A stretch of DNA of 64,000 nucleotides from an uncultured Azospirillum sp. Lineage in GTDB: Bacteria > Pseudomonadota > Alphaproteobacteria > RF32 > CAG-239. How positions within the stretch are numbered: position 1 is the stretch's first letter; each line of letters begins with the position of its first letter. The notes beneath the pieces were generated by a model. The model did not search any database and was not told the origin of the DNA. It saw only the letters and a program-made list of their open reading frames with translations. Below, piece after piece: positions 33,606 to 64,000 of the stretch. Both the position numbers and the translations under genes were made by a program. The stretch lies in assembly GCA_900538765.1 (NCBI GenBank), contig UQAB01000001.1, positions 75,679 through 139,678 of the forward strand, read 5' to 3'.

Positions 33606-33716
33606 TGCACATAGTTTCATATTCGTCAATTTTTCCTCTCTTCGTGAAAAATAATGGTTGAACATAAGAAAAATATATGTTAGATTAGATTTGTGATGAC
33701 AAGTGTGGAGGAAACT

Positions 33717-35597
33717 ATGAAAAGTATCTCAAAAGTAATGTTATTGTCAACTTCGTTCCTATTCCGCTTCGAAGCTGCTTACGCATTGGCCGATGCTGAT
33801 GCTTTTCCTGCTTTCCAAAGGGATGGTACCCACACACACTACACTACTAACCTCGCTCCTGTTCCACACTTGTCATCTGCACGCAATGAAATGGAATATA
33901 AGCTTGCTTCTGTTTGCTTCGTCACCGATACAACGGACTGCCGTGGCGGAAATTATGACATTCCGGATTACAACATCTGTGTTGAGGACGGTTATGACAA
34001 GACCTCCTGTCCCGATGAGTTTTACATTCCCGAAAACTACTGCCCTTATGACAGCAAATATTTTGCCAACTGCCGCGATGCCTGCGAGGGATATGTCGAA
34101 TGTGTCGACCCGTATTACGGTGTGGGTGAGGCTTGCCGTGGTTTATATGAAAAATGCGAATGCGACACCTGTCCCGGATATGTCTTTGAAAGCGATATTC
34201 CCCGCGGCTACCACAAAGTCGGGGAAGCCTGCAATTCCTGCGACGGGCCGAAATATAAGTACGAGATAAACACCTGCGACGGCTTTATGGAATGCACCGA
34301 CACCGGGCCGGAAGACGGCGCGGAAGTCTGCTGGCGCGGCGACACTCCGACATACAGCAGTTGCAAGCCCTGCGCCAATCTCGGCGATTTGGACAGTTGT
34401 CCGGCACATTATGTCTGCAAATATGAAGACTGCTCCAAGAAATATTACAAGACCGGCTGCGAAGACGGCTATATCTGGGACGAGGCGGCCAAGACCTGCA
34501 CACCGGAGTGTGATCCGAACGACCGCACCTGCCAATGTCCCGGAAAACATTTTTGCGACCCGGACACCAAAGTCGGCGACGGCAAAACCTGTACAACCGC
34601 CGACGGCACAACCTACTACGAAAGATGCCTCGTCAAGGAAACTTGTATAACCCATCATATGGCTAAAGATCCTGTATATCCGCAATGTCACATAAGAAAT
34701 TCTCTTGGTTTAAATAATTATTCATATTTTGTTGAAAAATACTGTACAACGCAGCAAAACCAAACTTATTACCGCTTTTGTTCTTGTACAGCTACTCAAA
34801 CGGATCCCTTGGGAAATATGCCGCCTTGCGCAGGCAAAAAACAATGCGATAACGATTCAGGATATGGTGAGCCCTGTATATGCGGCAACGGAAAATACTT
34901 TGATAAATGCGATGAATGTCAAATTCAAGGACAACGTTGGGAAAAAGACGAAAACGGCAATGGCGGCTGGTGTACAGACACAACAACAGATGTTCGTAAT
35001 CCGGACTATGATGGCGGAATGTTCTATGTTGACGAAAAATGCAAAATGTTAGATGGCACACCCATTTACGTAATCGGTTATTGCGGACAGTCCGGCTGCC
35101 GAGGTTATGCAAATTCTTGCAATGGTAAAATGCTTTGTGAAGATGATGAAGGTGCAGAAGGCGAAGTCGCCTGTGAATGCGGCGGAAGGAAATATTTCAA
35201 TAAATGTAAGGAAATGTGCCAATATAAAGTTAATAATACCGGAGTTAAATTCCATGAAACATCACACTGGTTTACAAAGGGCTGGTATATGGACAAAGTT
35301 GTTTGTACGCGTCTGGACGGCAGCAAAGTCGGTTATAGAAAACAATGCAATGCCACAACGACTGATGCCGCCGGCAACATGCCGCCATGTGCGGGAATGA
35401 AAGAATGTCCTAACGGAACATTCGGTACCGGAGAAAAATGTTCCTGCGGCGGGGTGTTATTTTACAGCGGTAACTGTATCACAGAATGCACTTACGAAGA
35501 CACCGCGGAAAGCTGTGCCGCCAAAGGACAAAGTTTTGAACAGAAATGTTATGGCACAAAAGACGAACAACAAACCTGGTTCGGACAGTGTAAATAG
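33717..35597 (+). CDS. secreted, extremely cysteine-rich repeat protein (EGF/furin-like spacing)
   Basis: GGAGG SD 6 nt before ATG MKSISKVMLLSTSFLFRFEAAYA (signal peptide). The ORF-track start at 33693 is GTG. About 80 Cys. Repeated module ...GNMPPCAG(K/M)K(Q/E)C.N..G.GE.C.CG.G.YF.KC.E.CQ. Confidence 0.6.
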   Translation: MKSISKVMLLSTSFLFRFEAAYALADADAFPAFQRDGTHTHYTTNLAPVPHLSSARNEMEYKLASVCFVTDTTDCRGGNYDIPDYNICVEDGYDKTSCPDEFYIPENYCPYDSKYFANCRDACEGYVECVDPYYGVGEACRGLYEKCECDTCPGYVFESDIPRGYHKVGEACNSCDGPKYKYEINTCDGFMECTDTGPEDGAEVCWRGDTPTYSSCKPCANLGDLDSCPAHYVCKYEDCSKKYYKTGCEDGYIWDEAAKTCTPECDPNDRTCQCPGKHFCDPDTKVGDGKTCTTADGTTYYERCLVKETCITHHMAKDPVYPQCHIRNSLGLNNYSYFVEKYCTTQQNQTYYRFCSCTATQTDPLGNMPPCAGKKQCDNDSGYGEPCICGNGKYFDKCDECQIQGQRWEKDENGNGGWCTDTTTDVRNPDYDGGMFYVDEKCKMLDGTPIYVIGYCGQSGCRGYANSCNGKMLCEDDEGAEGEVACECGGRKYFNKCKEMCQYKVNNTGVKFHETSHWFTKGWYMDKVVCTRLDGSKVGYRKQCNATTTDAAGNMPPCAGMKECPNGTFGTGEKCSCGGVLFYSGNCITECTYEDTAESCAAKGQSFEQKCYGTKDEQQTWFGQCK

Positions 35598-44375: not shown

Positions 44376-44819
44376 TCATGAAAGACTGTTCATGCGCCGC
44401 ACCGGTCGGATAAAATTCGTTTCCCGGTTCAGGTGGCCGTTTTCGGCAGAATCCGGATAAACAAAAACCAACTCGTCAGGATTGTTCATCCATACTGTAT
44501 CCGTCCACACCGCACCGCGTCCGATACGGTCACCGCCAAGACTGACAATAAATTGGCAAAGCTCCTCAAACACCGGATGAATTGAAAGCCAAAACTCTTT
44601 AATTCCCAAATGACAGGGCTTGCCGTCAATCTTAACCGTCTTTACAATCTCCTTAGCTTCCGCAGGGGTATGCCACTTGCGGTCTTCTTTCAAAGAAATG
44701 GCATAACCGTTATAAATCACGGCTTCAACCTTTTTGTCCGGCAGCAAATCATGAGAAATTTCACCGCCAAGATACAAAATTGCAAACTTCTCGTTCTTTT
44801 GAAATTCTTTCTTTTCCAT
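44376..44819 (-). CDS. family protein (DUF1566/Lcl-C-terminal-like?)
   Basis: ...VKIDGKPCHLGIKEFW...SLGGDRIGRGAVWTDTVWMNNPDELVFVYPDSAENGHLNRETNFIRPVRRM aligns with the C-terminus of the 51085..51696 protein. Cassette upstream with TTGACT-16-TATAGT. Confidence 0.45.
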   Translation of the reverse strand: MEKKEFQKNEKFAILYLGGEISHDLLPDKKVEAVIYNGYAISLKEDRKWHTPAEAKEIVKTVKIDGKPCHLGIKEFWLSIHPVFEELCQFIVSLGGDRIGRGAVWTDTVWMNNPDELVFVYPDSAENGHLNRETNFIRPVRRMNSLS

Positions 44820-51084: not shown

Positions 51085-51696
51085 TTAAGATAATTCAGAC
51101 AAATCCAGCACCGGATGAACAACGTAGTTGCCGTACTTATTGCGGTAGTCCACGCCGCCCCAATCAGCGCCAATAAGCGTACAGAAGACCCACGCGTGGT
51201 AGCCGTCATACTCGGACGACGACCAATACCATTTCCCCTGCACCACTATTGTATCACCGCCAAGGCTAATCAACAAATTATCAAGCGCTTTTTTCTGTTC
51301 CTCACAGCTACTCATCACTTTTTTCCAGAATCCAATTTTTCCGGCGCTGCAAGCATGACCTTCTATTTTAATTTCACGACAATACTTCACAACTTCTCTC
51401 CACGGCACCGTCCTTGAAGAATCATGTAAGGTGATAAGATGATTCTCAAAAATAACGCCCAATGGCTTTTTGCCTTCAAGCGGAACCCATGACCGAACCA
51501 TACCCTCATACATAACTTCAAAAGGAAATCTTTCCTCGTTCTCTTTTGAAGAAACACCAACGACAGAAACGTCACTTGCTACAGCATTAATAGCCGGTAC
51601 CTCCTTTTCAGCACAATATTGCACCAAATCGTCAACTAAAAACCCTGCCGCCTCCAATGTCTCTTTAATACTTTGTAAAAATTTTTCTTTTTCCAT
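51085..51696 (-). CDS. family protein: N-terminal domain plus DUF1566/Lcl-C-terminal-like domain
   Basis: ...GKWYWSSSEYDGYHAWVFCTLIGADWGGVDYRNKYGNYVVHPV matches the hallmark YWSST...AW.v.f..G......yvRcV ending of DUF1566/FISUMP-type domains. No signal peptide. Confidence 0.5.
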   Translation of the reverse strand: MEKEKFLQSIKETLEAAGFLVDDLVQYCAEKEVPAINAVASDVSVVGVSSKENEERFPFEVMYEGMVRSWVPLEGKKPLGVIFENHLITLHDSSRTVPWREVVKYCREIKIEGHACSAGKIGFWKKVMSSCEEQKKALDNLLISLGGDTIVVQGKWYWSSSEYDGYHAWVFCTLIGADWGGVDYRNKYGNYVVHPVLDLSELS

Positions 51697-51775
51697 AATT
51701 ATATATTTTAATTAATAATAAATTTCATATTCCTACTCTATCACGCATTAGACAAAAGTCAACAAAAAAACATCT
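51697..51775 (-). promoter_or_regulatory. family-type promoter plus AU-rich leader (reference copy)
   Basis: Reverse complement reads TTTTTTTGTTGACTTTTGTCTAATGCGTGATAGAGTAGGAATATGAAATTTATTATTAATTAAAATATATAATTATG. Confidence 0.5.
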
Positions 51776-51819
51776 AAACCATTCATCTGCTTATACCGCT
51801 GCTAATCCGCCTTAATCCT

Positions 51820-52255
51820 AGCCGTAGTAAAAAGTTCAGAGTTTGCGGCAGATAATAAGAATCTCGGAAAAAGACGAAGGGAGTGTACATAGAAGTACAT
51901 GACCGAGTATTTTTTCAATGTTCTGTATTAGATGCCCAAAATACGCAGCAACAAACCCAAACCCCGACCTTAGCCGCTGTAAAAAGGTCGGAGTTTGCGG
52001 CAGATAATAAGAATCTCGGAAAAAGACGAAGGAAGTGTACACAGAAGTACATGACCGAGTATTTTTCCGAGATTCTGTATTAGGTACCCAAAATACGCAG
52101 CAACAAACCCAAGCCCCGACCTTAGCCGCTGTAAAAAGGTCGGAGTTTGCGGCAGATAATAAGAATCTCGGAAAAAGACGAAGGGAGTGTACACAGAAGT
52201 ACATGACCGAGTATTTTTCCGAGATTCTGTATTAGGTGCCCAAAATACGAGCTTT
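51820..52255. repeat. three tandem ~152-bp family-A-variant repeat units between infB stop and the 51085 gene promoter
   Basis: Each unit is ...CCGACCTTAGCCGCTGTAAAAAGGTCGGAGTTTGCGGCAGATAATAAGAATCTCGGAAAAAgacgaaGGGAGTGTACACAGAAGTACATGACCGAGTATTTTTCCGAGATTCTGTATTAGGT(A/G)CCCAAAATACG... ORFs 51836..52204, 51883..52083, 51970..52287, 52035..52235 and 52187..52393 are repeat artefacts. Confidence 0.7.
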
Positions 52256-54757
52256 TTACAATGTTGCGGCGATTTCCTCCACCTCATAACACTCTATAAA
52301 GTCACCGACTTGAATATCGTTATAGTTTTCAAAACTCATACCGCATTCATAGCCGGATTTGACCTCTTTAACATCTTCCTTAAAGCGTTTTAGCTGAGCC
52401 AAAGCGCCATCATGAATAACAACATTGTCACGCAGCAGACGAACCTTGGCACCACGCTTGACAAAGCCTTCCGTCACCATGCAGCCGCCGACTTTACCGA
52501 CACCGGTAATATTGAAGACATTGCGGATTTCGGCATAACCGATAATCTTTTCTCTCAATTCAGGCGACAACATACCTTCCAAAGCCTTCTTAATGTCATC
52601 GGCCACATCATAAATAATCGAGTAATAACGAATATCCACGCCGTCCTGACGCGCCATGTCACGGGCATGCGGAATAGCACGGACGTTAAAGCCGATGATA
52701 AAGGCATTGGAAGCCTTAGCCAGAGTAACATCGGAATCCGAAATAGGACCAACGGCAGAATGCAAAATCTGAACGCTGACTTCCTCGTTGGACAACTTCT
52801 TAATTGTACCTTCAATAGCCTCAATAGAACCTTGAACATCAGCCTTGATAATAACCGGCAAATGCTTAACTTCGCCTGACTTAATCTTATCAAGCATCTG
52901 TTCCATTGCAGACTTGGCACTCTTAACCAGTTTAGCGTCACGTTCTTTGCGAATACGATAACCGGTAACTTCCTTAGCCTGGTTTTCGTCCTTAACAATG
53001 ACAAAATCGTCACCGGCTGCCGGCGTTCCTTGCAAACCGAGAATTTCAACTGGGGTCGCCGGACCGGCTTCCGTCATCTTCTTGCCATGTTCGTTAAACA
53101 TAGCGCGGACATGTCCCCACTCCTTACCGGCAATACAAATATCACCAACGCGCAGCGTACCGTTCTGAACCAGAACCGTTGCAACAGAACCGCGGCCTTT
53201 TTCCATCTTGGCTTCAACAACCGTACCCGAAGCCATGCGATTCGGGTTGGCTTTCAAATCCAGAATTTCCGCCTGCAACAGAATAGCTTCAACCAGCTTA
53301 TCAATGTTAATACGCTTCTTAGCCGAAACTTCTGCGCTCAAATATTCACCGCCCATATCTTCAACGGCAATGCCATGTTGCAATAAAGCGGTCTTCACCT
53401 TCATCGGATCAGCGCCCGGAAGGTCAATCTTGTTAATCGCAACCACAATCGGCACTTCTGCAGCCTGAGCATGGCGGATTGCCTCAACCGTCTGCGGCAT
53501 AATGCCGTCATTGGCAGCAACCACCAGAACCACAATATCGGTAACCTTTGCACCGCGAGCACGCATTTCTGAAAAGGCCTCGTGTCCCGGCGTATCAATA
53601 AAGGCAATCTTTTTGCCTCCGGCAACTTCAATCTGATAAGCACCGATATGTTGCGTAATACCACCAGCCTCGCGAGAAGCAACGTTTGTTTCGCGCAAAG
53701 CATCCAATAACGAAGTCTTACCATGGTCAACGTGTCCCATAACCGTAACCACCGGCGCTCTCGGCAGCAAATCGGCGTCCGTATCTTCCGGACCGGTCAA
53801 CCCCTGCTCAACATCGCTGTCGGCAACTCGTTTAAACTTATGTCCGAATTCCTCAACCACAATCTGCGCCGTATCGGCATCAATCGGTTGGTTAATCGTA
53901 GCCATAACCCCTAAAGCCATCAGCTTTTTAATAACTTCGGCACCTTTTTCTGCCATACGGTTAGCCAATTCCTGAACCGTAATAATTTCAGGAATAACGA
54001 CCTCTTTAACAATTTTTTCTGTCGGCTGCTGAAAAGCCTGCTGCTTCGGCTGTTTTTTCTTAAACCGACGCCGGCCGCCGCCAAAACCATAATCATCGTC
54101 ATCTTCATCAACACTGCTCAATGTATGCAGGTTGACTTTTCCGCCGCGCCGCGGTGTTTCAAAACTGCGCTTCATAACTTTTTTGCGCTCTTGTTCAAAA
54201 ACATCATCTTTGCTCAAAGATCTTTCGGCAACTTTTTTAAACTTATGATTATGGGAATCTTCTTCCTCGTCTTCGTCCTCTTCATCGAAATCGCGGGACT
54301 TCTTTTCCTTAATCTTCTGAATACGATCATCCTCAGCCGGTGAAACCGCTGCCGTTACCACAGGACGAACAGCTGCTTTTTTCTCCTCCGCCGCCTTTTT
54401 AGCTTCTTCGGCTTCCCGTTGAGCCTTTTCCTGCTCTTCCTGTTCACGTCTCAGCTGGCGCTGGCGTTCCTTCTCTTCTTCCTCCTGCCGGCGTTTGGCA
54501 TCATGCTCTTTAGCCTCGGCAATAAGCCGCAGCTTTGCAGCTGTCGCTTCGTCAATTTTAACTTTAGGCTCTTCCGTTTCGCTGCGATTGGCGATAACCC
54601 TCTTCTTTCGCACTTCAACCTGAACAATCTTCTTGCCGTCATTATTGTGCGCCCGGGAACCGTCGCTTACATTTTTGAGTGTAAGGGTAGATTTACCTGA
54701 TAATGTTAATTTGCTTTTTGCATTATCTTCTGTCATTAATTTTTTTCTCCGTATCAT
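52256..54757 (-). CDS. infB: translation initiation factor IF-2
   Basis: GTPase domain [19 protein letters not shown]...DTPGHEAF...NKID and the IF-2 C-terminal domains. An alternative start is the ATG at 54736. Confidence 0.95.
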
Positions 54758-54765
54758 CTAACCGG

Positions 54766-55338
54766 TTATGCGTGCAAAAAACACTCATAACGTTTTAATT
54801 CTTTATATACTGTTTTTGACATTTCGCTCTTCAAAAAAGCGGCATGCACCGTATTAACTTTATCTAATGCCTTATCCAACTCCTCAGTAGTATACAATCC
54901 GAAAACATCCAGTCCTTTAGCCATACTCAACACTTTTTCATGCCCGTCGGCTCCGGCATCGCTGGCCTCAAGAATAAAAGCGACCTTTCCACGCTCCAAA
55001 GCTTCCTTAACCTTGTCAAAACCGGTAACCAGTTCCCCGGCCTTCCGCGCCAGATTAATCGCTTCCAAACCTTTTTTCTTCAAAAGGGCTTCCGTCATCT
55101 CAACCAATGACAAATCCGCTCTTGCCCGACCCTTAGTCGCCTTGGCAAACTGGTTTTTCTGAATGGTCGTTTCCAGCTTCTGCTTAGAATTTGAAACATA
55201 AATCCCGCGTCCCGGAAGTTTTTTCTTAAAATCCGGAATAACCCGCCCGCCGGAAATAAGCGTAAAACGCAAAAGCTCGTCTTTGCTTTTCACTTCTCCG
55301 GTCAGAATACATTTTCTGTCTTCAGTTTCCTGTTTCAT
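54766..55338 (-). CDS. YlxR (DUF448)-L7Ae fusion RNA-binding protein of the nusA-infB operon
   Basis: RKCILTGEVKSKDELLRF...LPGRGIYV is YlxR. LLKKKGLEAINLARKAGELVTGFDKVKEALERGKVAFILEASDA is L7Ae-like. The position between nusA and infB is typical of alphaproteobacteria. Confidence 0.7.
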   Translation of the reverse strand: MKQETEDRKCILTGEVKSKDELLRFTLISGGRVIPDFKKKLPGRGIYVSNSKQKLETTIQKNQFAKATKGRARADLSLVEMTEALLKKKGLEAINLARKAGELVTGFDKVKEALERGKVAFILEASDAGADGHEKVLSMAKGLDVFGLYTTEELDKALDKVNTVHAAFLKSEMSKTVYKELKRYECFLHA

Positions 55339-55480
55339 CTTCCTGTATCGATCAATAATAAAGAAACAATAACGGATAATTTTAGGCTAAAACAGAGAAG
55401 AGGAACGGAGCACCACACAGTGTATTAAAGAAACACATAAAAATGTGAACGCCGTACCGCTCCTCTGACAGCGCATAAAA

Positions 55481-57004
55481 CTATTCGCCCTCTTCTGTGA
55501 ACCAGTGCTCACGCGCTGCCATAATAACTCTGTTAGCTTCGGCCTGAGAAATAACACTCTCACCAAGCATTTCAATCAGCTCATCGGCAGCCAAATCAGC
55601 CAAATCATCAATGGTTTTAACGCCTTTTTCAGCCAAAACCAAAATCATATCCTGGTCCAGACCGCTGATTTCTTTCAGTTTGTCATCAATACCCAAAGAT
55701 TTACTCTTGTCGGCAAACTCCTTGTCACGCTTCGCAACAAACTCCTGAGCACGGCTCTGCAGTTCTTTAGCTACATCTTCGTCAAAACCCTCAATTTCAG
55801 ACAGCTCGGAAAGCGCAACCAAAGCAACCTCATCAACCGTTGAAAAACCTTCGGCAATCAGCAAATGAGCAATCATTTCATCAACGTCCAAAGCTTCCAT
55901 AAAGCGCTGAGAGCGGACTTTATTTTCATTGGAACGTCTTTCCTGTTCCTGCTCTTCGGTCAAGACATCTATATCGCAGCCAAGCAGCTGGGAAGCCAGT
56001 TTAACATTCTGACCGCGGCGGCCGATAGCGATTGAAAACTGCTCCTGAGGAACAACCACTTCAATACGGCCGTTTTCTTCATCCAAAACCACCTTGGAAA
56101 CCTCAGCCGGCGCCAAAGCGCTGACAATATACTGGGCTTTGTCTTCGGAATAAGGAACAATATCAATTTTTTCACCCTGCAATTCATTGACAACCGCCTG
56201 AACGCGAATACCGCGCAAACCAACGCAGGCACCGACAGCGTCAACCGTAACATCCTCGGCTTTAACGGCAATTTTAGCCTTTGACCCCGGATCGCGGGCA
56301 ACACCCATAATCTTGACAATACCATCATAAATTTCAGGAACTTCCTGAGTAAACAGCTTGGCCATAAATTCCGGACAAGTTCTGGAAAGGAAAATCTGCG
56401 GTCCTTTGTTTTCGCGGCGAACATCCAGAACATAAGCACGGATACGGTCGCCGTTTTTAAATTTCTCACGGGCAATCGTTTCGTCACGGCGTAAAATCGC
56501 TTCCGTCTTGCCGATATCCAAAACAACATTGCCGAACTCGGCTCTCTTAACCGTACCGTTGATAATCGTGCCGATTTTTTCGCGATATTCTTCATATTGC
56601 TTATTGCGTTCAGCTTCACGTACTTTCTGAACGATAACCTGCTTGGCAGTCTGTGCGGCAATACGTCCGAAATCAATCGGCGGCAGCGCGTCAATCAAAA
56701 ACTCGCCGACTTTAGCATCCGCTTTGATTTTTTTAGCTTTACTCAACGGCAGCTGAGCCGCCTCATTCTCAATAACGGCATCTTCCTCAACAACTTCGCG
56801 ATAACGGGACAAAGCGATAGCGCCTGTCTTGCGGTCAATATTGGCTCTGATGTCATGTTCAACACCGTATTTGGAACGGGCGCCTTTCTGAATAGCAACT
56901 TCCATCGCCACAAAAACATCCTCGCGGTCAATATTTTTCTCTCTGGCCACCGTGTCGGCAACCAAAAGAATTTCCGGTCTCGGCATACTTTCAATATTTT
57001 CCAT
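55481..57004 (-). CDS. nusA: transcription termination/antitermination factor NusA
   Basis: NusA N-domain, S1, two KH domains and a C-terminal acidic repeat. 507 aa. Confidence 0.95.
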   Translation of the reverse strand: MENIESMPRPEILLVADTVAREKNIDREDVFVAMEVAIQKGARSKYGVEHDIRANIDRKTGAIALSRYREVVEEDAVIENEAAQLPLSKAKKIKADAKVGEFLIDALPPIDFGRIAAQTAKQVIVQKVREAERNKQYEEYREKIGTIINGTVKRAEFGNVVLDIGKTEAILRRDETIAREKFKNGDRIRAYVLDVRRENKGPQIFLSRTCPEFMAKLFTQEVPEIYDGIVKIMGVARDPGSKAKIAVKAEDVTVDAVGACVGLRGIRVQAVVNELQGEKIDIVPYSEDKAQYIVSALAPAEVSKVVLDEENGRIEVVVPQEQFSIAIGRRGQNVKLASQLLGCDIDVLTEEQEQERRSNENKVRSQRFMEALDVDEMIAHLLIAEGFSTVDEVALVALSELSEIEGFDEDVAKELQSRAQEFVAKRDKEFADKSKSLGIDDKLKEISGLDQDMILVLAEKGVKTIDDLADLAADELIEMLGESVISQAEANRVIMAAREHWFTEEGE

Positions 57005-57043
57005 TTTATCCTCTTATCTTAAATTGTATCTTTTTATTAAAAA

Positions 57044-57547
57044 TTATAATTCAACTTCTGCCTGAGCTTCCTCATATTCTTTCAAAAGCTCATCAGTAAT
57101 GACTATCTTTGCCTTGGCGACATCTTCAAAAGGAATTTTATATTCCGTATCTTCCATCGTCAGGCAAATATTGTTCTCAGTGTCAACGCCGTTAACAACA
57201 CCCTTGAAACGTTTTCTGTTTTCAACCGCTACTGCCGTTTCAACTTTCACCTCATAACCGGCAAAACGCTTAAAATGCTCTATCTTTGTCAAAGGGCGGT
57301 CGATTCCCGGAGAGCTGACTTCCAGAGAATACTGATTCTCTATCGGGTCTTTTTCATCCAAAACGTCAGACAAAGCGCGGCTAACCTTGGCACAGTCATC
57401 AACCGTGATTTCCGTCCCGTCTTTCCGGTCAATCATAACCTGTAAAGTCGGATTTTTCATGCCAATAGTCAAAACCCTAATCAGCTCATATCCCAATCCT
57501 TCGACCACAGGTTCCAACATATCCTGCAAAGGGTGTTTATTAATCAT
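57044..57547 (-). CDS. rimP: ribosome maturation factor RimP
   Basis: LEPVVEGLGYELIRVL...LEVSSPGIDRPL. Confidence 0.85.
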   Translation of the reverse strand: MINKHPLQDMLEPVVEGLGYELIRVLTIGMKNPTLQVMIDRKDGTEITVDDCAKVSRALSDVLDEKDPIENQYSLEVSSPGIDRPLTKIEHFKRFAGYEVKVETAVAVENRKRFKGVVNGVDTENNICLTMEDTEYKIPFEDVAKAKIVITDELLKEYEEAQAEVEL

Positions 57548-57816
57548 TGACGATTCCTTCTAACAAAAAAGCGGGGCTTTTGACCCCACTTTCAATAATA
57601 TTATCAATTTATGAAACTCTTATACCACAAAAATTTTAAAAATCAAGCAGGAAAATCGCTGCCGGGCTTTTCATCCGCTGTATAATTTAAAATTTGCAAC
57701 AGATAATTTAAAAACATGATACCCAGAACAAAATATACAAAATTACCTTATTCTTTAACCTTTAATATATTAGTTCCCGACTAAGTCAACTCCAATTTAT
57801 AACATAAGAAAATTCT

Positions 57817-59592
57817 TCATATTTTTTTTTTATATTTCAAAACAAAATCATTAACAAGGTCATAAATCTTCTGCTTGTAACATTTTTGATTGTATAAAGT
57901 TTCTATATCAATATCTTTATTCCCAACATATATTTTTATTCGTGAACCCAGCTTGACATCAATATCTTCGTCTAAAGCTAGAAAGTCTAAATTAAAAATT
58001 TCAGCATATTGTTTTTTAATCTTTTCTTTAAGCCTCAAATAATCTTCATTTACTAACAAATATTTTAGCATAAATTCATTTCCAAAAAAATCCTTGTATT
58101 TTGAATAATCATTACTAGCAATACTAGCGCACTTATCATTTGTTATATCACAAGGATACAAACTTAAATCAATCTTTTCGCTTTTATTTATAACAAACCA
58201 ACATGTCAATCCTCCATCAGAAGGGCGTTCTTTAAAATATTCTTCACTCAAGGTTCTGTAATATGCATAATAATCTCTTAGGCATTCACCGTTTTCTACA
58301 TATTCAATTTTCTTTGATAGAGGAGCTTGAGAATTAGTACTTCCATCTTTTACCAAAGAAATTGTTGCTGGTTGAACATCCTTATAAATAATAAACGTTT
58401 TATTACGATCTAAATAATTTTTCTTATTTTCAATGACGATATTCTTGTCTTTCTTCAACGTTCTATATTCTCTTAATTTGTCTCCAGCAAAATCCTTCTC
58501 ATCAAAATAGTAAAGCTTATCTCGTACTTTAATTGAGGCATGGGGAGGTAAACCAACAAACTCTTCTTTATCTGAATTTTGTCGATAAAAAAAGAACTCG
58601 GCATTGTAATTAAACAATTCATATTTTTTGTTTTGAAATGATAAACTTGCTATCGTATACGGAGAATTATTGGTAATTATATACTCAACTTCAAAATCAT
58701 TGTAATTAGAGATAACACGAGAAAACTTAACCTCAACCTGAGACTTCAACTCCTCAATTTTATCACTGAAAGGTTTCGCTATTAGCTTTCCATCAGTCAT
58801 AAAATTAAATGTCTGCTCTATAAGATTATTTATTTTCTTTTGTTTTTCTGAACTACAAATATTCCCATCAATTTCCGTTGCAATTTCATCAGTTTTATAA
58901 GCCATTGCTGCTTGATAATCTTTACTTAATTTTCTTAAATCATCTAAAAAATCCATTCCCAAATTTTTGTCATTAGTAAGAATATCTTTATCAGATGGGG
59001 AAATATTAAAAATTTCTTCTGTATACTCTTCTTCATTTTCTAAAATCTCAAGATAAGAAGAAATAATTTTTTTTACTTTCTTTCTGTTGTTTAACTCTTT
59101 TAACTTTTGTTCCTCCCTTTTCTGTTTCATATCCTTATTATACGTTTTACATGAACGATAATTACTAATTTCATTCATTCTCGACAAACTTAATTCTGTT
59201 TTTAATACATTTATATCCTTTTGCAGAGGGTTATCGTCATAAACATTTGCCAAAAACAAGCTATAATGTTCTATTACGGTTTCCATGTCGCCTAAAACAA
59301 TATCTTTAATATTATCACATACGTTTGACACTTCCATATTAGCAATCTCTGTTTTTATCTCTACTAAGCTAGATATTCTATTTGAAAGTACAATCCGTGA
59401 TGTTACAGAAGCAATTTTCTCATACTCAGAAAATAATTTTATTTTCTTGTTTATAAATTCTTTTTCCCCTGCTGGCTCGTAAAAATATTTATAATAAGAA
59501 TAACAAATACTTCCACAAATTATTATTGTTAACAAGGCTATTAAAGATAGTAAAATTATTTTCTTTAATTTCAACATTTTCTTTTCTTCCAT
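57817..59592 (-). CDS. AT-rich-island hypothetical lysine-rich single-pass membrane protein (~592 aa)
   Basis: Start at MEEKKMLKLKKIILLSLIALLTIIICG with SD GGGGTGA 3-4 nt upstream. N-terminal TM then a large K/N/E/Y-rich domain. Very low GC compared with neighbours. Confidence 0.55.
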   Translation of the reverse strand: MEEKKMLKLKKIILLSLIALLTIIICGSICYSYYKYFYEPAGEKEFINKKIKLFSEYEKIASVTSRIVLSNRISSLVEIKTEIANMEVSNVCDNIKDIVLGDMETVIEHYSLFLANVYDDNPLQKDINVLKTELSLSRMNEISNYRSCKTYNKDMKQKREEQKLKELNNRKKVKKIISSYLEILENEEEYTEEIFNISPSDKDILTNDKNLGMDFLDDLRKLSKDYQAAMAYKTDEIATEIDGNICSSEKQKKINNLIEQTFNFMTDGKLIAKPFSDKIEELKSQVEVKFSRVISNYNDFEVEYIITNNSPYTIASLSFQNKKYELFNYNAEFFFYRQNSDKEEFVGLPPHASIKVRDKLYYFDEKDFAGDKLREYRTLKKDKNIVIENKKNYLDRNKTFIIYKDVQPATISLVKDGSTNSQAPLSKKIEYVENGECLRDYYAYYRTLSEEYFKERPSDGGLTCWFVINKSEKIDLSLYPCDITNDKCASIASNDYSKYKDFFGNEFMLKYLLVNEDYLRLKEKIKKQYAEIFNLDFLALDEDIDVKLGSRIKIYVGNKDIDIETLYNQKCYKQKIYDLVNDFVLKYKKKI

Positions 59593-59706
59593 AATCACCC
59601 CGCTTATTCGAAAAACCATTAATCGAAAAATACTTCCAATAAAAAGACACAAACAACAAAAAAATGAAAAACTAAATCTATATTAATCATCCATTATACA
59701 CAACAT

Positions 59707-60816
59707 TTAACCGTCTTCAAGATGAAGCAATATCGACACGCTCACCAATACCGTAATCAAAATAGGCGTCCAAACCGCCATAAATACCGGAATATAGCCG
59801 TTCAAACCGAAAGTATAAATAACCTGCGATGAAAAATAAACCAGAAAACCGGCAATAATACCGCCGACAATAAGAAACATCACGCCACCGCGGCGATTGT
59901 TCGGCCGCAGAGCAAAAACCGCCGCTACCAAAACCATGGCACAAAGCATAAATGGCGAAGCAATCAGCGACAAATAACGAATTCGATGTTTAACCACCGA
60001 AAAGCCGGATTTTTTATAAAATTCTATTGTGCTGGGCAAATCCCAAAAAGAAATGGCGTCAGGATCAATAAAATTCTCCCGGATACGATCGACCGTAATC
60101 GTTGTGTTGTACTTAACGCTGTTGACAATAGTCCGCGGCTTACCGGCCTCAAATACATTAACATCTTTCAACTCAATCTGTTCATTTTTCAAAACCGCCA
60201 TAAAAGCACCAACCTGCCGCAAAATCTGGGAATTATGGTCAAGTTCCAAAATATTGACATCATACAAATACAAAGTCTGCTCATCTTCCTGACGGACGGA
60301 TTTGGCCTGCATTACCAAAACATTGCCTTCTTCCGCCGCTTCCCTGATCCATAATCCTTTATCGGAAAAAAGCACGGCCTTCGGATTTTTGGTCTTAAGC
60401 TGATAATCCATCGTTTCAAAAATTTCCAACATCCTTGAGGCAATCGGATTAAAAATACTCACATTAATCACGCCAATCATAAAAACGGCAAACAGAACCG
60501 GAACCAGAAAGCCCCAAACAGACACCCCTGCTGCCCGGATAATCACAAATTCGTTTGTTTTGCTGACTTTTTGAAAAGTCACCATCGCGGCAATCATCAT
60601 GACAAACGGGAAAATCATATCCAGTGTCCGCGGCAATTTCATCATTACCATCTTCAGAACAAAACCCCAGCCGATATCCGGCCTGTCCGCCACACGGCGC
60701 AGCAAATCAATCACCTCAAACATAAATATAATGCCCAGCACCATAATCAGAACTGAGAAAAAATTCCACACAATCTGCTTTGTCAGATATCTGCCGAGAA
60801 TAGAATTAGGTTTCAT
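59707..60816 (-). CDS. LptF/LptG-family LPS export permease (YjgP/YjgQ)
   Basis: Six-TM topology with a large periplasmic loop and a conserved N-terminal ILGRYL...F region. 369 aa. Confidence 0.75.
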   Translation of the reverse strand: MKPNSILGRYLTKQIVWNFFSVLIMVLGIIFMFEVIDLLRRVADRPDIGWGFVLKMVMMKLPRTLDMIFPFVMMIAAMVTFQKVSKTNEFVIIRAAGVSVWGFLVPVLFAVFMIGVINVSIFNPIASRMLEIFETMDYQLKTKNPKAVLFSDKGLWIREAAEEGNVLVMQAKSVRQEDEQTLYLYDVNILELDHNSQILRQVGAFMAVLKNEQIELKDVNVFEAGKPRTIVNSVKYNTTITVDRIRENFIDPDAISFWDLPSTIEFYKKSGFSVVKHRIRYLSLIASPFMLCAMVLVAAVFALRPNNRRGGVMFLIVGGIIAGFLVYFSSQVIYTFGLNGYIPVFMAVWTPILITVLVSVSILLHLEDG

Positions 60817-60898
60817 TATATTTAAACAGCTTTCCTTTTTAAAAATTTGCCTACAACATAACCAAAAACGACCGCTTTGGCAAATACTTTTTTCAAGG

Positions 60899-61825
60899 CT
60901 AAAACCAGCCTAGCGACAAATACCTTTCCGTCCCGTCCGGCAAAATAACCACAATCACCTTCTTGGCAAACTCCGGACGCTGCCCGATTTTCACCGCCGC
61001 CGCCAGCGCTGCTCCGGCAGAAATGCCTATCGGCAAACCTTCTTCCTTAGCCGCGTCTTTCAACAAAGCGATTGCTTCGTCATCCTTAATATCTATAACT
61101 TCGTCCACCAAAGATTTATCATAAAACGGCGGCACGAACCCGGCGCCTATACCGGGAATTTTATGCGCACCGGCCTCCCCGCCTGACAAAACCGGACTGG
61201 AAGCCGGCTCCACGGCAACAACATACAAATCCGGATTGCAGGTTTTCAGCGTCGACGCTATTCCAGTCAAAGTCCCGGAAGTCCCGACAGCACTGACAAT
61301 CACGTCAACATTTCCGCCGGTATCCTCCATAATCTCCATACTCGTTCCCAGCCGGTGCGCTTCGGGATTGGCTTCGTTTTCAAACTGTTTCAACATAATC
61401 ACGTTCGGATTTTTCGCCGCCAAGATTTCCGCCTTTTTTATCGCACCGTTCATCCCGTCTTCTCTAGGCGTCAAAATAACCTCCGCCCCGAAATGGCGCA
61501 TCATCTTGATACGTTCTTCACTCATATTTTCCGGCATGGTTATCACCAGTTTATATCTCTTGGCCGCACACATCGCCGACAAAGCAATGCCCGTATTTCC
61601 CGAAGTGGCTTCCACAAAAACCGTTTCACTGTTGACCTTTCCGCTCTCTTCCGCTTTTTCAAGCATTTTCAAAGCAATACGGTCCTTAACCGAAAACAAC
61701 GGATTATAAGCCTCGCACTTTCCCAAAATCTCGGCCTTAACCTTATGCTTGCGGCACAAACGATTTAAACGCAGCAACGGCGTATGCCCGACCATTTCCG
61801 TAATTGAATTGTAAATTTTCTTCAT
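60899..61825 (-). CDS. cysK: cysteine synthase A (O-acetylserine sulfhydrylase)
   Basis: MKKIYNSITEMVGHTPLLRLN...SVKDR (PLP lysine) ...GTSGTLTG. Start at the internal ATG. Confidence 0.85.
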   Translation of the reverse strand: MKKIYNSITEMVGHTPLLRLNRLCRKHKVKAEILGKCEAYNPLFSVKDRIALKMLEKAEESGKVNSETVFVEATSGNTGIALSAMCAAKRYKLVITMPENMSEERIKMMRHFGAEVILTPREDGMNGAIKKAEILAAKNPNVIMLKQFENEANPEAHRLGTSMEIMEDTGGNVDVIVSAVGTSGTLTGIASTLKTCNPDLYVVAVEPASSPVLSGGEAGAHKIPGIGAGFVPPFYDKSLVDEVIDIKDDEAIALLKDAAKEEGLPIGISAGAALAAAVKIGQRPEFAKKVIVVILPDGTERYLSLGWF

Positions 61826-61921
61826 TTTGACCTCTAACCTGTTCATAAAGCGCAAAACAAGTTTATTTTCTGCGCCGGATTTGCTACTATTGGCTCAATC
61901 TTAAAGGCAAATAATAAAAAA

Positions 61922-62506
61922 ATGATAAAGACCCAAACTTTTATTTATACGGTTTTACTCGGAACGATCCTCGCTGTGCCGGCGCCGGCAACCAGTCTGG
62001 ATGAAATCTACCGGGACATCGTCCGCTCCGACAACAGCGGATATTTGCCGCTATACGTTAAAAACCGCAACGCGCCGGAATTCCTCTTTGATGACAGCGA
62101 GCTGCAAAAAGCCAAAGACAATCCCCCGCTCATCCCGATTATTCAGGAAGAAGACAGCGTTATTGACTTTGAAAACAAAAGAAAACTGCGCGAGCTGGAA
62201 GAGCAGGCCAGGATTTTACAATGGCAGCAAACGCTTAACGCCGTAAAAGAAAACCGCGTTACTCCGGTCGAATTAAAAGAAATCGAACAAAAAGCCGAAA
62301 AGAACGACCCTCAGGCCATTGAAGTCTACGCTTATATTTATGCCCGCGGGATTGGTGTCAAACCTGATTTGCCCAAAGCGTTCCAACTCTACCAGAAGGC
62401 AGAAAAGTTAAACGTACCCAATGCCTTGCAAAATGCTGCCAAGGTATATAAAGCCATGTCCCCGAAACAAAGAAAAGAGCTTTCCCCGCTGAAGGCTAAG
62501 AATTAA
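61922..62506 (+). CDS. secreted Sel1-like repeat protein
   Basis: Signal peptide MIKTQTFIYTVLLGTILAVPAPA. C-terminal AIEVYAYIYARGIGVKPDLPKAFQLYQKAEKLN matches the SLR consensus. Confidence 0.5.
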   Translation: MIKTQTFIYTVLLGTILAVPAPATSLDEIYRDIVRSDNSGYLPLYVKNRNAPEFLFDDSELQKAKDNPPLIPIIQEEDSVIDFENKRKLRELEEQARILQWQQTLNAVKENRVTPVELKEIEQKAEKNDPQAIEVYAYIYARGIGVKPDLPKAFQLYQKAEKLNVPNALQNAAKVYKAMSPKQRKELSPLKAKN

Positions 62507-62999
62507 ATTCTTCGGGAAACAACTGCTGCAGAGCCAGCCAGTGACAATAGTTTATCTTGACTTTTCCGCTGAAAATATCTTCAATATCCGCCCAAACGGC
62601 TTCGCCGTTTTCCGGTGTTTTCCACCGCGGACGCAACACATCAAAACCATAAGCGTCAGCTTCATAAACCATAAAAAACTGATGGTAAATATAAAACATG
62701 CCGCTTGGCTTTTCATCATCGGCGAAATAATTAACCGTCTGCTCAAACTGCCGAACACCTTTATCCAGCATAAACTCCACGCCGGTTTCTTCATAAAGCT
62801 TGCGGAACAGACAATCCCTGAAATTCTCGCTGCGGCGAATGCTTCCGCCCGGAAATTCAGGAACCCCCACTCCCGGAGGATAAGTCAGCAAAATCTTGTT
62901 TTCCTTAACCAACAGGGCAAAATAACCGTTTTTATATGCCGGGATAACATCATCGGCATATTTTGGACGCCCTTTGCGGTTAAAGAAAAGATTATCCAT
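62496..62999 (-). CDS. NUDIX hydrolase
   Basis: Nudix box GGSIRRSENFRDCLFRKLYEETGVE. Confidence 0.7.
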   Translation of the reverse strand: MDNLFFNRKGRPKYADDVIPAYKNGYFALLVKENKILLTYPPGVGVPEFPGGSIRRSENFRDCLFRKLYEETGVEFMLDKGVRQFEQTVNYFADDEKPSGMFYIYHQFFMVYEADAYGFDVLRPRWKTPENGEAVWADIEDIFSGKVKINYCHWLALQQLFPEEFNS

Positions 63000-63654
63000 G
63001 CTGCGCTTCCGTCAAAAGATGTTCAACAAACTCTGCCAACCCGGTCTGTCTGACGCGCTTCATTCTCTCTGCGGAAATAATTTTCTGCACCTTATAAACC
63101 GTTTCTTCCAGATTGACATTCAACAAAACATAATCAAATTCTTTCCAATGGCTCACTTTGTCAGGAAACTGAGACATCCGCTTTTTGATAACTTCTTCAG
63201 AATCCGTCCCTCTGCCGTACAAACGCCGTCTAAGCTCCACAATTGATGGCGGCAGAAGATAAATCGTCACGACATCATCCGGCGCCTTAGCCTTCATCTG
63301 CCGAGCTCCGGCCCAATCCATATCAAACAAAACATCTTCGCCGACATTCAAAAAGCCGTCCACCTCTGAGCGCAAAGTCCCGTAACGCGCGCCGTATTGA
63401 GAATCAACACATTCATAAAAAGCGTCTTCGGCCTTGAGCTTGTCATATTCCGCATCGGAAATAAAATGATAATCGATATCTTCAACTTCCGTGTCACGCT
63501 TTGGCCGGGTCGTTACCGAAACTGAAAACTTAATATGCTCGTCCTGAGCCAGAATTTCTTTGCAGACAGCACCTTTTCCCGTCCCCGACGGTCCCTCAAT
63601 AATAAACATTGCGCCGCGGCGGACTCTTTTCAGTTTGTCGATAATGTCATTCAT
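62992..63654 (-). CDS. gmk: guanylate kinase
   Basis: FIIEGPSGTGKGAV P-loop and VSVTTRPKRDTEVEDIDYHFIS. Start chosen at the ATG with SD GAGGAGAAAG rather than 63672. Confidence 0.85.
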   Translation of the reverse strand: MNDIIDKLKRVRRGAMFIIEGPSGTGKGAVCKEILAQDEHIKFSVSVTTRPKRDTEVEDIDYHFISDAEYDKLKAEDAFYECVDSQYGARYGTLRSEVDGFLNVGEDVLFDMDWAGARQMKAKAPDDVVTIYLLPPSIVELRRRLYGRGTDSEEVIKKRMSQFPDKVSHWKEFDYVLLNVNLEETVYKVQKIISAERMKRVRQTGLAEFVEHLLTEAQHG

Positions 63655-63757
63655 GTCTTTCTCCTCGCCCAAATGTGTAAAACTGCTGCTGCAAATTTTG
63701 ATTTTAAGTAATTTTATAGTATATTGCTAAAAACAATATTAATAAGGATTTTCAAAA

Positions 63758-64000
63758 ATGGCAACATCAAAACGTTATCAAAACATCCTCATTACCGGCG
63801 CTTCTAGCGGTATTGGCGAAGCCTTGGCGCTGCAATATGCCAAAACCACCGCCGCCCGCCTGTTTTTATCAGGCAGAAATGAAGAACGCCTGCAGGATGT
63901 CTGCCGCCGCTGCAAAGACCTTGGCGCAGAAACCGAATGCAAAATCATTGACGTAACCGACCGCCAAGCTATGAAAGAATGGATAAACCAATGCGAAAAG
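63758..64000 (+). CDS. short-chain dehydrogenase/reductase (SDR), N-terminal part (runs off window end)
   Basis: Manual translation gives MATSKRYQNILITGASSGIGEALALQYAK... with the TGxxxGxG cofactor motif. SD AAGGA 9 nt before the ATG at 63758. Confidence 0.6.
   Translation, partial: MATSKRYQNILITGASSGIGEALALQYAKTTAARLFLSGRNEERLQDVCRRCKDLGAETECKIIDVTDRQAMKEWINQCEK

Follow-up and report, generated by a model that had tools for sequence, protein, structure and literature searches.

An AT-rich islet between lptF and rimP

The 64-kb stretch of DNA analyzed here (hereafter the window), from an uncultured gut alphaproteobacterium, carries about 2 kb of unusual sequence between lptF, which encodes an LptF/LptG-family permease (positions 59707 to 60816, minus strand; Pfam LptF_LptG, E 1.2e-60), and rimP (57044 to 57547, minus strand; Pfam RimP_N and DUF150_C). 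This segment holds one gene (57817 to 59592, minus strand) for a predicted membrane-anchored protein of 591 amino acids (aa) that belongs to a new and very rare family. We conclude that positions 57672 to 59707 are almost certainly a recently and horizontally acquired, strain-variable islet made up of this single gene. An earlier interpretation made from the letters alone (the sequence-only reading) had also placed horizontally acquired DNA between rimP and lptF/G. Both the position and the origin hold, the latter because the interval is a compositional outlier, a close relative (L065) has an empty site, and a homologue of the gene (in contig L001) occupies an unrelated locus. The further neighbors are cysK past the lptF side and nusA, ylxR, and infB past the rimP side.

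The guanine-plus-cytosine (GC) content of positions 57548 to 59706 is 27.6%, compared to 44.6% over the whole window, which bears out the sharp drop relative to flanking housekeeping genes that had been described. When GC is computed in 2-kb sliding windows (mean 0.446, standard deviation 0.039), the minimum of all, 0.27, falls in the islet, about 4.4 standard deviations under the mean. The islet gene has a GC content of 0.35, 0.24, and 0.23 at codon positions 1, 2, and 3, respectively. Its third-position value (GC3; 0.226 to 0.230, or about 0.23) is the lowest among the 35 open reading frames (ORFs) of at least 200 aa that were compared, with the other 34 ranging from 0.39 to 0.60 and nearby nusA, rimP, lptF, and cysK ranging from 0.45 to 0.57. 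If the same protein were encoded with the codon usage of its neighbors, a GC content of about 35% would be expected rather than the 27% found. Given this difference and the low GC3, the AT-richness goes beyond what the Lys/Asn-rich amino acid content accounts for. Sliding-window GC and codon usage, which had been proposed as checks, thus both place the islet far outside the distribution of the window.

The insertion site and its junctions

A scan seeded with NusA, taking one genome per GTDB species, yielded 80 loci, all from uncultured Alphaproteobacteria that inhabit the gut of humans, ruminants, chickens, and other animals, in records labeled Alphaproteobacteria, Azospirillaceae, Candidatus Scatocola, or CAG:495. 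Contig L065 (JAUNPO010000040.1) is essentially conspecific with the window genome, with identities of 100% for NusA, 99% for LptF, 98% for RimP, and 97% for CysK, and with flanks that are 95 to 98% identical at the nucleotide level. In L065, lptF and rimP are only 127 bp apart and the islet gene is missing. Alignment with blastn maps window positions 52245 to 57671 and 59708 to 64000 to adjoining L065 positions (4932 and 4929), and therefore positions 57672 to 59707 represent a 2,036-bp insertion in which 2 bp of the L065 sequence were replaced. The sequence-only reading had set the island at 57550 to 59700. Its AT-rich extent of about 2 kb stands, and its boundary on the rimP side has to be moved, since positions 57548 to 57671 are native and comprise the lptF terminator, the rimP promoter, and the rimP leader.

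The junctions were read base by base against L065. In gene orientation, the empty site is GAAGACGGTTAG / TAAAAGCCCGGCAG, the left junction of the filled site is GAAGACGGTTAA / ATGTTGTGTATAATGG..., and its right junction is ...TATACAGCGGATG / AAAAGCCCGGCAG. In short form, the filled junctions read GACGGTTAA/ATGTTGTG and CAGCGGATG/AAAAGCCC, and the empty site reads GACGGTTAG/TAAAAGCC. The insert falls exactly in the gap that separates the lptF stop codon from a terminator-like hairpin. The empty site has TAG as this stop codon, whereas the filled site has TAA, its last A being supplied by the insert. The hairpin (57646 to 57663, minus strand), which was found by scanning, directly follows the lptF stop codon in L065 and is evidently the native lptF terminator. 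It now sits just downstream of the islet, where it is the sole terminator-like hairpin downstream of the islet gene.

Across the left junction, a consensus scan found a promoter-like site (59693 to 59720, minus strand; 10 of 12 matches) whose -35 element, TTGAAG, is formed by the last lptF codons and whose -10 element, TATAAT, lies inside the islet after a 16-nucleotide (nt) spacer. The native promoter-like element of the rimP-nusA-infB genes (TTGATT, a 17-nt spacer, and TGGTATAAG; 57619 to 57646, minus strand) is outside the islet, is unchanged in L065, and is kept in relatives, and we take it to be a promoter from its sequence. The insertion left this element and the rimP leader (57548 to 57646) unaltered. 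The leader also contains, after the promoter-like element and ahead of the rimP start, a strong hairpin followed by a run of T residues (GGGGTCAAAAGCCCCGCTTTTTT; 57565 to 57587, minus strand). Every relative inspected retains this hairpin, which resembles an attenuator in the leader of the rimP-nusA-infB operon.

No target-site duplication, terminal inverted repeat, or flanking direct repeat is present at the islet junctions, and the islet encodes no recombinase, integrase, or transposase, its one ORF having no such domain in Pfam or NCBIfam. With neither a mobility gene nor a target duplication, the original insertion looks like illegitimate recombination in which 2 bp were swapped and the stop codon was rebuilt. 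An integrase-type genomic island was rejected because an integrase, a tRNA target, and direct repeats are all missing from the window copy; indeed, the whole window contains no tRNA gene. A transposon or insertion sequence was likewise rejected in view of the missing transposase, terminal inverted repeats, and target-site duplication, and because the five islets now recognized, including this one, have no common termini. An integron cassette with an attC-like site was dropped as well, given a fold z-score of only -0.87 and the lack of any intI or attI context. No Rfam family is found within the islet, nor is there an unusually stable RNA structure at its 3′ end. Two sub-threshold Rfam matches to small RNAs, at 57559 to 57648, fall in the native rimP promoter and leader. 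A search of the literature on the host lineage returned nothing that bears on this locus.

Elsewhere in the window, immediately downstream of infB, a 152-bp unit occurs in 2.8 tandem copies with a 94% match (51819 to 52249). Positions 51534 to 52244 have no counterpart in the conspecific L065, which makes this a second strain-variable spot.

Gain and recent spread

The islet gene is located between lptF and rimP in none of the 39 related genomes that retain lptF directly upstream of rimP, and the nearest outgroups among them have lptF-rimP spacers of 112 to 160 bp with no islet gene. The polarity is clear, and is a gain. The sequence-only reading had suggested examining presence or absence in relatives, and the outcome, including the empty site in L065, is that the gene is not conserved in this syntenic position.

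The spacer itself is variable among these 39 genomes, whose spacer classes were counted by hand and whose cargo contents come from inspected members. The spacer is 332 bp or less and holds no gene in 23 genomes. It is about 680 bp in six genomes, where it encodes a 144- to 146-aa protein of unassigned function, and about 770 to 800 bp in eight others, where it encodes a PAP2-family membrane phosphatase (checked in L026, L028, L029, and L045). The same type of phosphatase is encoded in the 1,143-bp spacer of L010, and the 3,299-bp spacer of L017 holds a gene for a 154-aa relative of the 144- to 146-aa protein together with genes for two Cys-rich secreted proteins. Other cargo thus occupies the slot in 16 of the 39 genomes. 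These varied contents show that the spacer between lptF and rimP is a hot spot that gathers accessory genes in this clade, the islet gene being one of several alternatives, and that the cargo with a recognizable function is envelope-related.

Several of these cargo proteins merit separate comment. The PAP2 phosphatase of sister species (about 215 aa; L010 8698 to 9366, L026 8712 to 9362, and also L028, L029, and L045) may act on lipid A or undecaprenyl phosphate, and would then be co-located with lipopolysaccharide (LPS) export. The 146- to 154-aa slot proteins of L014 and L017 have weak paralogues (E 5e-9 to 2e-4) in the window at 51085 to 51696 (minus strand, 203 aa) and 44376 to 44819 (minus strand, 147 aa), and judging from these similarities all of them make up a multi-copy accessory family of unassigned function. 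The window also encodes a secreted, very cysteine-rich protein of 634 aa with no Pfam domain (33693 to 35597, plus strand). Relatives of this protein are slot cargo in L017 and lie beside the islet homologue in L001, and it appears to represent a clade-specific expanded family.

The islet is present with identical junctions in three independent assemblies, which are the window, L003 (a Logan contig from SRR20950676), and L086 (the human-gut contig OURC01002572). Relative to the window, L086 has no differences over the 2,036 bp of the islet (100% identical) and 21 differences over 1,819 bp of the flanks when one suspect cluster is excluded (Fisher p = 1e-7). L003 has 5 differences over the 2,036 bp of the islet (99.75% identical) and 23 over 1,273 bp of the flanks (Fisher p = 4e-6). 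The islet is therefore far less diverged than its flanks, as a recent spread would produce. The suspect cluster in L086 consists of nine mismatches in 60 bp by the right junction (matching window positions 57606 to 57665). We do not take it as a sign of an independent site-specific insertion or of a recombination breakpoint, and regard it as a probable sequencing error because most of the mismatches are transversions and the contig coverage is 2.96x.

The 3′ end of lptF in L003 shares variants with the empty-site contig L065, beginning just 33 bp off the junction, and hence the islet is linked to at least two flank haplotypes. Judged from these alignments, the pattern would be best explained by a single illegitimate insertion followed by strain-to-strain spread through homologous recombination in the conserved flanks. 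Repeated site-specific insertion could also have placed the islet in several flank haplotypes.

The islet protein

The gene lies on the minus strand, a detail on which the sequence-only reading has to be amended, and the ORF itself is real. The protein begins with ATG (MEEKKM), and a version of the ORF opened by TTG reaches position 59652. The Shine-Dalgarno sequence that had been attributed to the gene is also in place: GGGGTGAT (59594 to 59601, minus strand) is 5 nt upstream of the ATG, where it would presumably serve in translation initiation.

A full-length AlphaFold2 model built from a five-sequence alignment has a mean predicted local distance difference test score (pLDDT) of 79 and a predicted template modeling score (pTM) of 0.53. 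Hydropathy agrees with the earlier call of one N-terminal transmembrane helix, at approximately residues 12 to 34 (59491 to 59559, minus strand), after a lysine-rich N-terminus; the model has a helix at residues 2 to 37. Next comes a predicted four-helix-bundle domain with two conserved cysteines (residues 38 to 165; 59098 to 59481, minus strand), which is also supported by hhalign, and then a helical, charged linker (residues 166 to 285; 58738 to 59097, minus strand), so that residues 43 to 285 are helical in the model. Predicted strands form a beta-sandwich domain at residues 286 to 414 (58351 to 58737, minus strand), in which the strongest conservation of the family resides (motifs EYIITNNSPYTIA, FYRQN-D-EEF-GLP, and AGD-LR-YR). 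After a segment modeled with low confidence (residues 417 to 471), the alignment and the model define a C-terminal alpha/beta domain at residues 472 to 591 (57820 to 58179, minus strand) that includes C481, C488, and C571.

Because the lysine-rich N-terminus precedes a single helix, the protein is predicted to have its N-terminus inside and its C-terminus outside, leaving its bulk extracytoplasmic. The eight cysteines that are invariant in the alignment of five variants (C92, C148, C246, C437, C464, C481, C488, and C571) fit an oxidizing compartment. We considered that the window protein might be a lipoprotein and rejected this possibility, as the cysteines of its membrane segment are not conserved and there is no lipobox.

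The extracytoplasmic domain had earlier been described as resembling low-complexity sequence, and this description fails. Lysine does account for 12.9% of residues, and low-entropy windows hold just 62 of the 591 residues, which belong to the membrane helix and to two short stretches of charged residues, whereas the rest is modeled as a multi-domain fold. The companion statement that no motif can be recognized is correct insofar as the protein has no match in Pfam, NCBIfam, or the PDB, and is superseded for the N-terminal domain, which is recognizable though unannotated (see below). Searches with the window protein gave no match above noise in Pfam, NCBIfam, PADLOC, or PHROGs, and neither the single protein nor a profile matched PDB sequences. 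Foldseek searches of the full model against the PDB and BFVD returned only generic immunoglobulin/ApaG-like sandwich resemblances (E of 0.03 or more; for the beta-sandwich against the PDB, 0.07 or more), and the C-terminal alpha/beta domain has no structural match in either collection.

A rare gene family with AT-rich members

The family was sought with a word index over 5.8 billion clusters (single sequence and profile), an exhaustive HMMER search over 1.84 billion representatives, and a scan of JGI metagenome contigs. Across all of these searches, the full-length family totals five variants: the window type P0001 (window, L003, and L086), P0004 (L001, with a 99.85% match in L087), P0002 (L002), P0003 (L005), and P0005 (L004). 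The other four are 42 to 49% identical to the window protein, and the samples that contain them are SRR13490896, SRR17030640, ERZ28594575, and ERR13989096. The ORF is intact in all five, pairwise ratios of nonsynonymous to synonymous substitution rates (dN/dS) range from 0.15 to 0.34, and synonymous divergence (dS) ranges from 0.7 to 2.0. These values argue that the islet gene is functional and under purifying selection, and that the variants are old relative to each other.

Three of the variants occupy known sites, each a different one. The L001/L087 homologue lies in a block of about 2.1 kb (21 to 31% GC) within flanks of 46 to 47% GC, bordered by anmK and small ORFs on one side and by a Zeta_toxin-domain gene and ileS on the other; L001 is placed in the same clade by shared Cys-rich secreted proteins. 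Contig L002 starts with the 3′ end of a tRNA gene, and the next gene downstream of its homologue is GtrA-like. The L004 homologue adjoins a gene for a UvrD_C and topoisomerase zinc-ribbon protein in DNA that is equally AT-rich.

Direct repeats bracket the homologues in two of these contigs. In L002, a 28-nt terminator hairpin is repeated perfectly at 33 to 60 and 2136 to 2163 (2,103 bp apart). In L004, repeats of 104 nt with 92% identity are at 99 to 202 and 2242 to 2345 (2,143 bp apart) and hold iteron-like YCCCGA-N4-GGATTT sub-repeats. Both spacings are near the 2,036 bp of the window insert, which itself has no such repeats, and a comparison of the ends of the five islets revealed no conserved termini in common.

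Regardless of host context, all five coding sequences have a GC content of 25 to 27% and a GC3 of 0.17 to 0.23. Synonymous sites among the variants are saturated and GC3 is nevertheless this low, which implies that too little time has passed for amelioration in the present hosts. Instead of having evolved in place, copies of the family must be supplied again and again by a mobile gene pool that is AT-rich. That only five variants, all of them AT-rich, exist among some 15 billion public proteins points to a pool that is still unsampled, probably the phages or plasmids of these bacteria.

An extracytoplasmic domain shared with mobile elements

The exhaustive HMMER search also produced weak matches between other proteins and residues 30 to 170 or thereabouts, which correspond to the N-terminal domain (N-domain). 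In P0008, P0010, P0011, and P0014, a canonical lipobox (LSAC, LTAC, or ISGC) is followed by the N-domain and ankyrin repeats. P0012 (142 aa) has a lipobox and the N-domain alone, and P0009, P0013, and P0015 (150 to 170 aa) have a membrane helix and the N-domain alone. Searching with a profile built from the domain brings up 32 proteins, almost all of them 140 to 215 aa and unnamed or listed as "hypothetical," some from Acinetobacter and one from an Anaerolineales metagenome-assembled genome, and none of the 32 has a Pfam domain. The shared features are the motif IA-x-T-S/P-R-I-x-L and a conserved cysteine pair. When the profile of the five-member family was compared by hhalign with a profile of 18 small proteins that excluded family members, the match had a probability of 98.1% and an E value of 1.4e-13. 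On this profile evidence, the N-domain of the window protein is homologous to the small anchored proteins and the ankyrin lipoproteins.

AlphaFold2, run with 36 sequences, predicts with very high confidence that the N-domain forms a four-helix bundle trailed by one additional helix (pLDDT 95.8, pTM 0.88). A Foldseek search with this model against the PDB found nothing significant, the best hits being generic bundles (E 0.7). The N-domain always directly follows a membrane helix or a lipobox, and for this reason it is a membrane-proximal extracytoplasmic module. The same placement supports the topology predicted for the window protein. Both the full-length protein family and its N-domain are new and unannotated.

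The five relatives whose contexts were examined all occur in mobile elements or defense-type neighborhoods. P0015 is encoded on the opposite strand between the Phage_lysozyme and Mor genes of a Mu-like prophage that also carries Portal_Mu, Terminase_6N, Mu Gp27, GemA, MuB_C, and Kil, as seen in three independent records (L094, L095, and L096). The gene order makes this a textbook moron position. The gene in L094 (5001 to 5507) encodes a 168-aa membrane-anchored protein consisting of the N-domain only, and is a candidate moron in its own right. P0009 shares its phage-like contig with a Gp3-like gene and with one for a large serine recombinase, P0010 comes directly after Phage_integrase and Imm_superinfect genes, P0008 has an integrase on one side and a resolvase plus a KAP NTPase on the other, and P0030 adjoins pPIWI-RE genes.

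A possible role in envelope protection

Because the N-domain recurs in a moron position of Mu-like prophages and beside integrases, we propose, by analogy and tentatively, that the islet protein serves in the periplasm as an exclusion or protection factor, much as the products of morons do. This functional assignment is possible rather than probable. Taken whole, the combination of an acquired islet and moron-like envelope protection is the best explanation we can offer, and we regard the chances of its being right or wrong as evenly balanced.

In such a mechanism, transcription would come from lptF read-through, from the promoter-like site that spans the junction, or from both. The product would be tethered to the inner membrane by its single N-terminal helix, and the part projecting into the periplasm would consist of a four-helix-bundle stalk, the helical linker, the beta-sandwich, and a cysteine-rich head. 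There, the protein could bind an incoming foreign macromolecule or mask the target of that macromolecule. Phage tail or ejection proteins are possible targets, as is a toxin that acts in the periplasm.

A number of observations weigh against this interpretation. At 591 aa, the protein is much larger than typical exclusion proteins, and the window copy is outside any prophage (its flanks are lptF, cysK, rimP, nusA, and infB). Both these neighbors and the PAP2 phosphatase as alternative cargo of the slot would suit a role in envelope remodeling equally well. The protein has no sequence or structure similarity to a known exclusion, defense, or immunity protein in Pfam, NCBIfam, PADLOC, PHROGs, the PDB, or the Foldseek PDB and BFVD collections. 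The link to phages runs through distant relatives that share about 125 of the 591 residues, and the beta-sandwich and C-terminal domains are confined to the five-member family. The full-length protein is absent from IMG/VR, from INPHARED phages, and from PLSDB plasmids; moreover, P0015 and P0013 have no match in INPHARED, and P0015 and P0010 have none in IMG/VR. Promoter-like sites are no commoner in the islet than in shuffled sequence, so that the promoter call is no better than chance. Finally, L003, L086, L002, L004, and L005 are short metagenomic assemblies, with L086 at about 3x coverage.

The strongest competitor, which we consider rather doubtful, is that the protein is an accessory factor for envelope remodeling or host interaction. 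It might be a partner in LPS transport or surface biogenesis, or a factor for adhesion or colonization, exchanged among strains in the manner of O-antigen and low-GC surface genes. The insertion within the lptF transcription unit, ahead of the lptF terminator, is in keeping with this idea, as are the PAP2-family phosphatase in the same slot of sister species, the GtrA-like gene beside the L002 homologue, and the richness of the genome in other secreted Cys-rich proteins. The predicted periplasmic topology and the eight cysteines also fit it as well as they fit protection. However, no partner gene is kept across the window, L001, L002, and L004 contexts, and the relatives of the N-domain are located in prophages and integrative elements rather than in LPS loci. 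Searches of Pfam, NCBIfam, and Foldseek revealed no similarity to LptC, LptA, glycosyltransferase, phosphatase, or adhesin families, and an inner-membrane anchor with no export signal past the periplasm is ill-suited to a surface adhesin.

Polymorphic toxin systems are known to include immunity proteins with ankyrin repeats. In a sub-case of envelope protection that has a bacterial rather than a viral target, and that we judge unlikely, the islet protein would be an orphan immunity protein directed at a polymorphic toxin or bacteriocin that acts in the periplasm. The predicted anchored and periplasm-facing arrangement, encoded by a strain-variable single gene, would serve such a function, and the L001 homologue is near a Zeta_toxin-domain gene. 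In addition, the relatives of the N-domain include lipoproteins of mobile elements that carry ankyrin repeats, which are protein-binding modules. Nonetheless, none of the contexts has an adjacent toxin gene, the protein is very large for an immunity protein, and known Pfam immunity families are unmatched.

It is quite improbable that the islet is a selfish or neutral passenger that gives no benefit to its host, spreads by recombination or by unrecognized mobilization, and is possibly silenced as AT-rich DNA. The extreme rarity of the family, the absence of a recognizable function, the weak promoter evidence, and the direct repeats flanking the L002 and L004 homologues, which hint at a mobilization mechanism, all agree with this explanation. 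In contrast, purifying selection in all variants, the intact ORFs, and the invariant cysteines are not expected of a passenger. Divergence of the islet well under that of its flanks fits a recent spread or sweep, and there is neither an encoded recombinase or transposase nor a set of conserved termini common to the islets. An ancestral native gene deleted in L065, or an assembly chimera, is effectively refuted, for although presence/absence polymorphism alone gives no polarity, the gene is missing in all 39 lptF-rimP relatives including the closest outgroups, a gene long resident in this genome could not have a GC3 of 0.23, and the same junctions recur in three independent assemblies.

A bolder extension of the protection proposal would combine several claims, and as a joint statement we hold it to be improbable. 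According to this extension, the unit of about 2.0 to 2.1 kb is a new type of recombinase-less single-gene mobile cassette that comes from an AT-rich phage or plasmid pool. Intergenic sites close to terminators would be its recurrent landing places in gut Alphaproteobacteria, and direct repeats of 28 to 104 nt would be left behind in some cases. Its product would define a new class of large periplasmic exclusion proteins, directed at toxins or phages and carried on a four-helix-bundle stalk that is common to prophage morons.

The kind of event described here is ordinary, since strain-specific AT-rich islets with orphan envelope proteins are a standard outcome of horizontal transfer. This is a clean case of it, with junctions defined to the base, an empty site, and recent spread, in an almost unstudied lineage of uncultured gut alphaproteobacteria. 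The newly defined extracytoplasmic four-helix-bundle domain, which is found across diverse bacteria in prophage morons and in elements flanked by integrases, is a candidate envelope-protection module.

Comparison with known systems

Classical genomic islands and islets share with this one a deviant GC content and codon usage, a presence/absence pattern for which the empty site can be defined, and placement in a hot spot where relatives have varied cargo. The present islet differs in spanning only 2 kb and one gene, and in the window it comes without an integrase, a tRNA target, or direct repeats, with a junction like that of an illegitimate insertion.

LptC, the single-pass periplasmic part of LptB2FGC, invites comparison because the islet gene is likewise adjacent to lptF and its product has an N-terminal anchor and a predicted periplasmic, beta-rich domain. 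The islet protein nevertheless has no Pfam or NCBIfam match to LptC or LptA, and Foldseek finds no match to the Lpt beta-jellyrolls. It is also three times larger than LptC, strain-variable, and foreign in composition.

The closest functional analogy is with phage morons, which are inserted units of deviant GC content; in HK97, gp15 is an inner-membrane exclusion protein (PMC3594210). HK97 gp15 and P22 SieA, both of which reside in the inner membrane and are encoded by inserted genes of deviant composition, prevent DNA from entering (PMC3594210, PMC10883804). The Ltp-type lipoproteins are a further example of exclusion at the envelope (PMC3952083). Like these morons, the islet is a single gene that was inserted between conserved neighbors with a GC content unlike that of its surroundings (PMC3594210), and its protein is predicted to share their membrane or envelope anchoring (PMC3594210, PMC10883804, PMC3952083). 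A distant relative of its N-domain, P0015, is furthermore in the classical moron position of Mu-like prophages. Unlike the morons, the islet is chromosomal, sits between housekeeping genes rather than in a prophage, and appears to lack a terminator of its own.

The islet protein is several times larger than the exclusion proteins themselves, and an exclusion role for it is a proposal made by analogy. Neither its sequence nor its fold resembles gp15, SieA, Imm, Ltp, or any PHROG. With SieA, gp15, Imm, Sp, Ltp, and Cor/Llp all in view, there was no match in Pfam (including Imm_superinfect), PHROGs, PADLOC, or the PDB, and Foldseek gave none with E below 0.03 in BFVD or the PDB.

The nearest relatives of any part of the protein are the members of the N-domain family (P0008 to P0043). 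What they have in common with it is a membrane-proximal domain of about 125 aa, the IA-x-T-S/P-R-I-x-L motif, and the conserved cysteine pair. Those relatives consist of the domain alone (140 to 215 aa) or of the domain and ankyrin repeats, whereas the islet protein adds a beta-sandwich and a Cys-rich C-terminal domain.

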